Origin: Eledone cirrhosa
Lineage: Eukaryota
DNA: 64,000 bases
Reading direction: 5' to 3'
NCBI GenBank assembly: GCA_964016885.1
Contig: OZ024741.1
Coordinates: 93,868,001-93,932,000 of the forward strand
The notes under the pieces were generated by a model. That model searched no databases and was not told the origin of the DNA. It worked only from the letters and a program-made list of their open reading frames with translations. A program made the translations under genes and the position numbers. This document shows, in pieces, positions 3,173 through 61,406 of this stretch; within the stretch, counting starts at the first letter, position 1; each line of letters begins with the position of its first letter.

Positions 3173-3559
3173 TCAGGACCATTGTTTGAAAAAGGTAATG
3201 CATTCTTCAATATCGGGTCGCTTGTCTGGGTCTTTTCCCCAGCATCGTTTTATAAGTTGTTGGAAGTCTTCTGGGGGTTTTTCAGTCATATTTAAAGTTG
3301 GCCGAAGACCACCTATTACAGTATCTTCAATACTTTTATGAATAAGTGGTCTTATATATGTAACTACATCCATTCCGTACCACATTTCCCACAGTACAAT
3401 AGAGAAACTGTAAATGTCAGCCTTTTTACCGTAGATGAATTTTCGCTCGAAGATTTCGGGAGCCATATAACAAGGACTTCCTGCAATCGATCCAGCAATA
3501 TCACGTTCGAGTTTAGAAAGACCCACATCGGTGAGCTTTATGGTGTTATCTTCTGTTAC
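3173..3559 (-). CDS. Exon L (last coding): kinase C-lobe ([32 protein letters not shown]) and stop
   Basis: TTTCAG|GTAACA; TGA stop at 3175-3173. Confidence 0.95.
   Translation of the reverse strand, partial: VTEDNTIKLTDVGLSKLERDIAGSIAGSPCYMAPEIFERKFIYGKKADIYSFSIVLWEMWYGMDVVTYIRPLIHKSIEDTVIGGLRPTLNMTEKPPEDFQQLIKRCWGKDPDKRPDIEECITFFKQWS

Positions 3560-61406: not shown

Follow-up and report, generated by a model that had tools for sequence, protein, structure and literature searches.

A dynamin-superfamily GTPase joined to a kinase in Eledone cirrhosa: a member of a broad invertebrate family related to DSTYK

Animal proteins that join a GTPase and a kinase are known mainly as Roco/LRRK proteins, whose kinase may be controlled by nucleotide or by dimer formation. 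In LRRK1, LRRK2 and Dictyostelium Roco, the GTPase is a Ras-like Roc domain followed by COR. Nostoc BDLP (2j68/2j69) and the mitofusins MFN1, MFN2 and Fzo1 are built as a neck, G domain, trunk, tip and returning neck helix; they carry a G2 "CT" and a G4 of the form N-x-W, and they have no kinase. Mitofusin tips are transmembrane anchors, while that of BDLP is a hydrophobic paddle. In both BDLP and MFN1 it is the G domain that dimerizes. Mx, dynamin/DRP1 and IRG proteins are P-loop GTPases that act on membranes and also lack a kinase. DSTYK (Dusty, SgK496, formerly RIPK5) is a protein of about 930-980 aa whose C-terminal kinase has an activation segment of the pattern DxG...GSIxG(T/S)PxxMAPE. 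According to passages of PMC11933320, human DSTYK is found on late endosomes and phosphorylates STING, it occupies Rab7/LAMP1 endosomes at rest irrespective of its own kinase activity, and, by a title in the reference list, it is linked to urinary tract malformations.

The locus described here lies in a 64,000-nt stretch of Eledone cirrhosa DNA (the window; contig OZ024741.1, positions 93,868,001 to 93,932,000). Like Roco proteins, its product holds a GTPase and a kinase in one chain, but the GTPase is a dynamin-superfamily G domain set within a helical stalk. It shares the neck-to-neck layout, the G2 "CT" and the N-x-W of G4 with BDLP and the mitofusins, and differs from them in having a kinase and a tip that is weakly hydrophobic. 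DSTYK resembles it in length, in activation-segment pattern and, in models of both proteins, in a BDLP-like N-terminal fold. However, DSTYK lacks GKS, DxxG and NKxD, evolves slowly (88.8% identity to Argonauta) and is present in vertebrates. The G1 string of the window protein, GETGSGKS, is one that we take to resemble IRG P-loops.

The original prediction, made from the window alone, was that 12 exons splice in frame to encode a dynamin-like GTPase fused to an intact DSTYK-like kinase. All of the GTPase and kinase motifs that it quoted were located on the minus strand. With the G1-G2 exon as query, 5 of 67 candidate proteins carried both Dynamin_N and kinase domains, all of them cephalopod-like. 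Five cephalopod-like proteins were aligned back onto the window, and exact GT-AG boundaries were then set. The 12 exons have AG acceptors throughout and all 11 introns have GT donors; joined, the exons give 2,805 nt, encoding 934 aa and a stop with no internal stops. The product aligns without a gap to O. bimaculoides LOC106883634 (P0001), with 70.4% identity over 927 aa, and this excludes a chance chain of exons. The junctions, as read from sequence and homology, thus agree with the prediction, except that the gene extends past the window. The leading exon there has a splice acceptor and no ATG; a further exon with an ATG lies about 61 kb beyond it. The full gene has 13 exons over about 119 kb and encodes 984 aa, the same length as P0001, with 69% identity.

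Exon 1 (G000:C2:93990619-93990470; minus strand, as are all 13 exons) starts with the ATG and encodes aa 1-50, a small helical module. We found no usable feature match for this module, and its structural likeness to RNF34L-like_3rd/SAP-type folds is weak and under our bar for naming. Exon 2 (61187..61406; aa 51-123) encodes the first neck-bundle (HD1) helices and beta-1 as far as the split Gly124 of G1. Because an intron interrupts the Gly124 codon, the ten-residue string quoted for this motif is absent from unspliced DNA and becomes visible only after splicing. Exon 3 (47584..47876; aa 124-221) supplies G1 GETGSGKS (K130) and G2 Thr151 (CCTA), exon 4 (46694..46834; aa 222-268) supplies G3 DTPG (D228), and exon 5 (35716..35916; aa 269-335) supplies G4 NKWE (N295-E298). 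Searched singly against Pfam, exons 3 and 4 match Dynamin_N (E 2e-10 and 2.3e-4, respectively), and exons 12 and 13 match the kinase (E 3.5e-12 and 3e-16).

With exon 6 (28317..28426; aa 336-372) the chain leaves the G domain for a neck helix; exon 7 (24903..25128; aa 372-447) encodes a long stalk helix and exon 8 (23467..23695; aa 448-524) trunk helices. Exon 9 (14091..14181; aa 524-554) carries a basic segment into the stalk tip, where the model is of low confidence (541-565), and exon 10 (13174..13559; aa 554-683) holds the weakly hydrophobic tip segment and then the returning stalk helices. Exon 11 (8737..8965; aa 683-759) encodes the last turns of the neck helix followed by the kinase N-lobe, with GTGSFA, K737 and alphaC E754. 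The hinge and the catalytic loop HRDLKMEN (D849, N854) are in exon 12 (5727..6018; aa 759-856). Exon 13 (3173..3559; aa 857-984 and TGA) contains DVG (D867), S871, S880, S884, YMAPE and the C-lobe.

Two other candidate exons were rejected. An open frame at 45983-45612 has no Pfam match and no counterpart in any orthologue, and a copy of exon 7 near 22010-21899 loses similarity after about 36 codons. The latter belongs to a partial duplicate of exon 7 and its upstream intron (21892-22061, 86% DNA identity; 22250-22359, 91%), with an insertion between the two parts. This duplicate, within intron 8, is likely a dead copy. In the O. vulgaris model P0002, which is named shkA and is 782 aa long, we found no equivalent of exons 6 and 7 or of most of exon 10; an error in the gene model is more probable here than an isoform.

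Are the GTPase motifs complete, as had been claimed? G1 GETGSGKS, G2 T151 and G3 DTPG are intact. G4, however, is non-canonical: NKWE keeps N, K and W but has Glu in place of the Asp found in 33 of 37 full-length family members (the remaining 4 have Glu). The Trp is common to this NKWE, MFN1 NRWD and BDLP NAWD. In G1, a Ser of MFN1 and of many family members is replaced by Gly in the window protein. Because of the substitutions in G4 and G1, GTP specificity and rate can only be presumed. On the orthologue P0001, Dynamin_N scores 78 bits against a cut-off of 27, while neither Dynamin_M nor GED gave a Pfam match.

We modelled P0001 with AlphaFold2 from a 19-sequence alignment (mean pLDDT 78, pTM 0.66). 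From N to C terminus, the model has the 50-aa helical module, neck helices, a G domain (about 116-340), long stalk helices, a disordered-leaning tip (541-565), return helices to 693 and then the kinase. Helices fill 346-693, in agreement with the helical stalk of about 350 aa that had been proposed, and they form neck and trunk bundles in which the chain runs back to the neck. Foldseek placed Nostoc BDLP 2j69 first (710 columns, E 1.3e-16), with IniA, Campylobacter DLPs and MFN1 also ranked high. A second structural aligner was led by truncated MFN1 and Fzo1, with Z 28-29 (MFN1 5yew: Z 28.9, rmsd 4.6, 348 aligned, model residues 61-695), and the structural neighbours in the ESM Atlas are bacterial DLPs. 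A profile of kinase-less family fragments scored BDLP at 126 bits, MFN1 at 76, IRGs at 21-25 and DRP1 at 21, with no Mx among its best 60 matches; the rows of this profile included a probable bacterial DLP (P0360) and a SAM-DLP, and the BDLP score may have gained from them. The Foldseek result is independent of that mixed profile. Hence, the N-terminal 690 aa are predicted to adopt a BDLP/mitofusin-type fold, rather than that of Mx or classical dynamin; of the three relatives originally named, BDLP and mitofusin stand and Mx does not. Roc and COR gave no Pfam match on P0001 at E up to 0.05, in keeping with the earlier view that the protein is distinct from Roco/LRRK2.

Genome searches for dynamin-type exons, whose results are lower bounds, found DRP1-, dynamin-, EHD- and mitofusin-like exons and no Mx-like exon. 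We take an exon on C1764 to be mitofusin-like and separate from the window gene. Another Dynamin_N exon is on C17 (L053, G000:C17:12110960) and presumably resembles NUGGC/SLIP-GC.

The tip of the window protein has neither a hydrophobic membrane-inserting paddle nor a transmembrane hairpin: its best 19-residue Kyte-Doolittle hydropathy is 0.73, against about 2.0-2.4 in coral, hemichordate and amphioxus members. A strongly hydrophobic tip is absent from the whole molluscan branch to which the window protein belongs. Peripheral membrane binding by the tip is possible. The kinase has its full catalytic set (GTGSFA, K737, alphaC E754, D849, N854, D867 and APE), as had been predicted, and Pkinase scores 147 bits on P0001. 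An HRDLKxxN catalytic loop is of Ser/Thr type by kinase convention. The helix that completes the neck (671-693 in the model) crosses the exon 10/11 junction into the exon of the kinase N-lobe, so the kinase is predicted to hang from this last helix of the neck, close to the G domain and a long way from the tip that faces the membrane.

A full-length protein search returned 97 matches, 21 with both domains; the named ones were from cephalopods, scallops, pearl oyster, Mya, hemichordates, corals and amphioxus. This search is word-based and cannot show absence; it contained no vertebrate, arthropod or nematode members. A more sensitive search with one exon added 16 full-length two-domain proteins among the best 150 of 183 matches. 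The complete fusion is found in six relatives (P0004, P0005, P0008, P0009, P0019 and P0021) whose contigs measure 3.1-7.4 kb. In five of them, at 3.1-4.2 kb, the contig holds little beyond coding sequence, which leaves no room for introns and implies spliced transcripts, the contigs presumably deriving from RNA. The window gene is therefore a member of a broad invertebrate family, from corals to amphioxus, and not a lone paralogue, which refines the proposal of a divergent DSTYK-family paralogue.

G1-G3 are kept in 36 of the 37 full-length members, the single exception lacking that exon, although this tally is skewed to intact GTPases since members were found through the GTPase region. It excludes P0002 and P0015, gene models with missing exons. 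As read from these sequences, the retention of G1-G3 dates back to the cnidarian-bilaterian split. The kinase catalytic set is kept in 25 of 37, leaving 12 pseudokinases; in the molluscan-type branch of the window protein it is intact in 15 of 15. Among cephalopods, no part is better conserved than the G domain (68-78%, against 60-73% for the kinase), whereas the kinase is the better conserved of the two between the window protein and bivalve relatives (46% against 38%, Ylistrum). P0023 scored high on the family kinase profile and was excluded as an unrelated multi-kinase Sel1 protein.

Several relatives have other domain arrangements. P0304 is SAM-like plus GTPase without a kinase, and P0024, GTPase only, has a hydrophobic tip and is nested within the family at 96/96 in the G-domain tree. 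P0295 and P0324 join a CARD-like N terminus to a GTPase and a pseudokinase, with CARD-like matches that are weak and under the Pfam cut-off (E 2e-3 and 5e-5, respectively). P0331 adds a trypsin-like protease (E 6e-11) to the GTPase and kinase. It had been expected that pipelines would label such proteins only by the kinase. The database names do so ("shkA", "DSTYK-like" for the Argonauta orthologue at NCBI, or "uncharacterized"), but precomputed Pfam already gives Dynamin_N, so that automatic annotation does show the two domains together. The open-access full text that we searched contained no description of the family; passages of PMC9573974, PMC10280142, bioRxiv 2023.06.28.546890, PMC6208414 and PMC6214176 contain nothing on it.

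Is the window gene simply DSTYK? The activation-segment pattern of DSTYK has a single match in the genome, on C11, in an exon that is 99-100% identical to the DSTYK of octopods and about 85% to that of mammals. The true DSTYK gene there (G000:C11:10545882-10458016, minus strand) has 13 exons and 89.7% identity to O. sinensis DSTYK, while its kinase is only 31.5% identical to the window kinase. The window gene is therefore not the DSTYK orthologue but a distant relative. In kinase trees, the DSTYK clade (100/100) excludes the window protein. The original prediction held that the P-loop of DSTYK is degenerate in vertebrates. It is degenerate, but not in vertebrates alone: G1 (GKS), G3 (DxxG) and G4 (NKxD) are absent from 16 of 16 aligned DSTYKs, octopus and cnidarians included, and Dynamin_N had no match in the two DSTYKs scanned.

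The N-terminal part of DSTYK nevertheless resembles that of the family. Profiles of the two align over the G domain (probability 95%, E 3e-8), and the DSTYK N-terminal profile scores family members at up to 32 bits and the presumed bacterial DLPs in the set at no more than 18.5. A model of DSTYK (pLDDT 68) finds BDLP first in a structure search, over 718 columns. We conclude that the N-terminal 640 aa of DSTYK are predicted to be a BDLP-like fold with a dead P-loop. No dynamin fold or dynamin-like pseudo-GTPase in DSTYK was described in the same open-access full text.

Most kinase trees and the G-domain tree group the family with DSTYK. A kinase tree of 30 rows under a mixture model places them on one side of a branch at 100/99, and an LG tree of 35 rows does likewise at 86/85; neither includes pseudokinases or other long rows. 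In a quick tree of 67 rows that included pseudokinases, DSTYK stood outside the family, at an unresolved fork that it shared with outgroups. The branch of DSTYK is long, and the outgroups lacked animal IRAK, RIPK and LRRK; in the trees of 30 and 35 rows, two Roco-like kinases grouped with the outgroups. The G-domain tree, from which mitofusins were absent and three bacterial rows with no G1 pattern were left out, separates the family and DSTYK from bacterial DLPs at 97/98. In addition, two kinase introns of the window gene and DSTYK coincide in codon and in phase, one behind alphaC in phase 2 and the other behind the catalytic loop in phase 0, although these positions may be common to other kinases. 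With these limited outgroups, sequences and models both point to a common origin of the kinase and the N-terminal domain in DSTYK and the family. The family is likely the sister group of DSTYK, and DSTYK is likely the sister lineage or offshoot that retained scaffold and kinase and lost nucleotide binding. Divergence from Argonauta is 38% for the window gene (61.5% identity) and 11% for DSTYK.

Head-to-head with the window gene, on the opposite strand and starting 40 kb from exon 1, is a paralogue outside the window (G000:C2:94030700-94067776, plus strand) with 10 exons and an open frame of 1,008 aa. It keeps G1-G4, but its kinase is dead: HPE stands for HRD, IGM for DFG and ITIR, with Arg for Lys, for VAIK. 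It is the orthologue of Argonauta LOC115216741, with 54.5% identity to Argonauta (45% divergence). Most intron positions are common to the neighbour and the window gene. In trees, however, the two fall in different, old subfamilies, so their linkage is not that of a recent tandem copy. The records of the Argonauta orthologues, P0003 and P0022, share a longest contig size of 34,844,033, which suggests that they are on the same scaffold. These two genes are the only family copies found in this genome, and no third member turned up in the genome searches, which give a lower bound.

The identity of the gene is well established; its mechanism is a proposal to which we give even chances. We propose, with about equal weight for and against, that the 984-aa protein is recruited to membranes and works as a switch, with G domains that pair on GTP joining two kinases for mutual activation, most likely in a response to membrane damage or in innate immunity. 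The basic, weakly hydrophobic stalk tip would bind an endomembrane peripherally, a mode suggested by the molluscan branch lacking the strongly hydrophobic hairpin of coral, hemichordate and amphioxus members. On GTP loading, the G domains would dimerize and the neck-trunk hinge would open, as in BDLP and MFN1. Once clustered, the RD-type Ser/Thr kinases could trans-phosphorylate the activation segment (candidates S880 and S884) and afterwards their substrates, and GTP hydrolysis would reset the switch. The GTP-gated reading is supported by the predicted geometry and by the molluscan branch, which has kept its two active sites together. GTP hydrolysis by the window protein, GTP gating of its kinase and an immune role are putative.

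An immune or membrane-stress role is suggested by fast divergence from Argonauta, the weak death-fold (CARD-like) fusions, the trypsin-like fusion, the phosphorylation of STING by DSTYK, and B. subtilis DynA, which acts in phage resistance according to the portion of PMC8844932 consulted. Fast divergence could also reflect relaxed constraint, and a count of two copies, itself a floor, shows no immune-style expansion and argues against such a role. A simple GTP-switched kinase is also hard to square with a family of which a third is kinase-dead and in which P0024 is kinase-less; the 12 pseudokinases and the nesting of P0024 indicate that much of the family can do without kinase output.

The same observations could be read in the reverse direction, with membrane remodelling or repair by the GTPase as the primary activity and an accessory kinase that phosphorylates or sterically regulates the GTPase or its polymer, so that control flows from kinase to GTPase. 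The stronger retention of GTPase motifs than of kinase catalysis, the better conservation of the G domain among cephalopods, the nested kinase-less member and the transmembrane-like tip hairpin of many members all fit this. Yet the tip of the window protein is weakly hydrophobic, its kinase is better conserved than its G domain against bivalves, and DSTYK lost the GTPase and kept the kinase, so the scaffold can serve a kinase; we consider this direction of control rather unlikely for the window protein. Perhaps the kinase is instead constitutive, an endolysosomal or developmental enzyme like DSTYK in which the dynamin-like part is a mere membrane anchor and immunity plays no part? The resting endosomal location of DSTYK, for which its kinase activity is irrelevant in the passages of PMC11933320 cited above, would agree, as would a gene that is low-copy and intact in octopods. 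However, a passive anchor has no need of G1-G3, which DSTYK lost and the family has kept since the cnidarian-bilaterian split, and divergence in the family runs at three to four times the rate of DSTYK. We regard a constitutive kinase as unlikely.

The neighbouring gene raises a further reading, compatible with the membrane switch, in which the window protein forms a heteromer with the head-to-head GTPase-pseudokinase, in the manner of Campylobacter DLP1/DLP2 or of kinase/pseudokinase pairs. The paralogue is intact and keeps its G motifs without HRD, DFG and VAIK, the pair is apparently linked in Argonauta too, and the ancient separation of the subfamilies speaks against a recent tandem copy as the reason. 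On the other hand, linkage may be a remnant of an old duplication, and a common promoter for genes 40 kb apart would be a long one; we think the heteromer unlikely. That the locus is an ordinary DSTYK orthologue, or two adjacent genes wrongly joined, we find scarcely credible, despite the "DSTYK-like" name of the Argonauta orthologue. Orthology is refuted by the separate gene on C11. Against a false join speak exon 11, in which the neck helix ends and the kinase N-lobe starts, and the two-domain relatives (21 of 97 matches in the full-length search). The claim that GTPase and kinase exons form one gene is thereby supported.

The family is an architecture independent of Roco/LRRK and built, from corals to amphioxus, on a BDLP/mitofusin-type mechanochemical GTPase, and the window protein would show how membrane remodelling could switch on a kinase. 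In invertebrate members that have kept both active sites, one can ask directly whether the kinase is controlled by membrane binding and GTP-driven assembly. For human DSTYK, the predicted fold offers a testable structural identity for the N-terminal two-thirds of the protein. A bolder reading, which we offer as doubtful, is that the family represents an ancient, undescribed animal class of dynamin-gated kinases, in which a membrane sensor of bacterial-dynamin type would polymerize on membranes that are damaged or contain a pathogen and activate its own kinase together with the linked pseudokinase. Human DSTYK would then be the last vertebrate descendant, a pseudo-GTPase whose 640-aa dynamin-like scaffold would explain its late-endosome localization and STING phosphorylation.

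The introns of the window gene also hold mobile elements. In intron 4, a 777-aa frame at 38081-40411 (plus strand) with reverse transcriptase (RT), RNase H and integrase is the pol of an LTR retrotransposon. LINE-type elements with endonuclease and/or RT frames are found at 49847-52189 (minus), 29771-34800 (plus) and 8900-10700 (plus); the one at 29771 has an upstream frame of 638 aa with no Pfam match, possibly ORF1. Finally, a GIY-YIG endonuclease frame at 59485-60066 (plus) probably derives, we presume, from a Penelope-like element.
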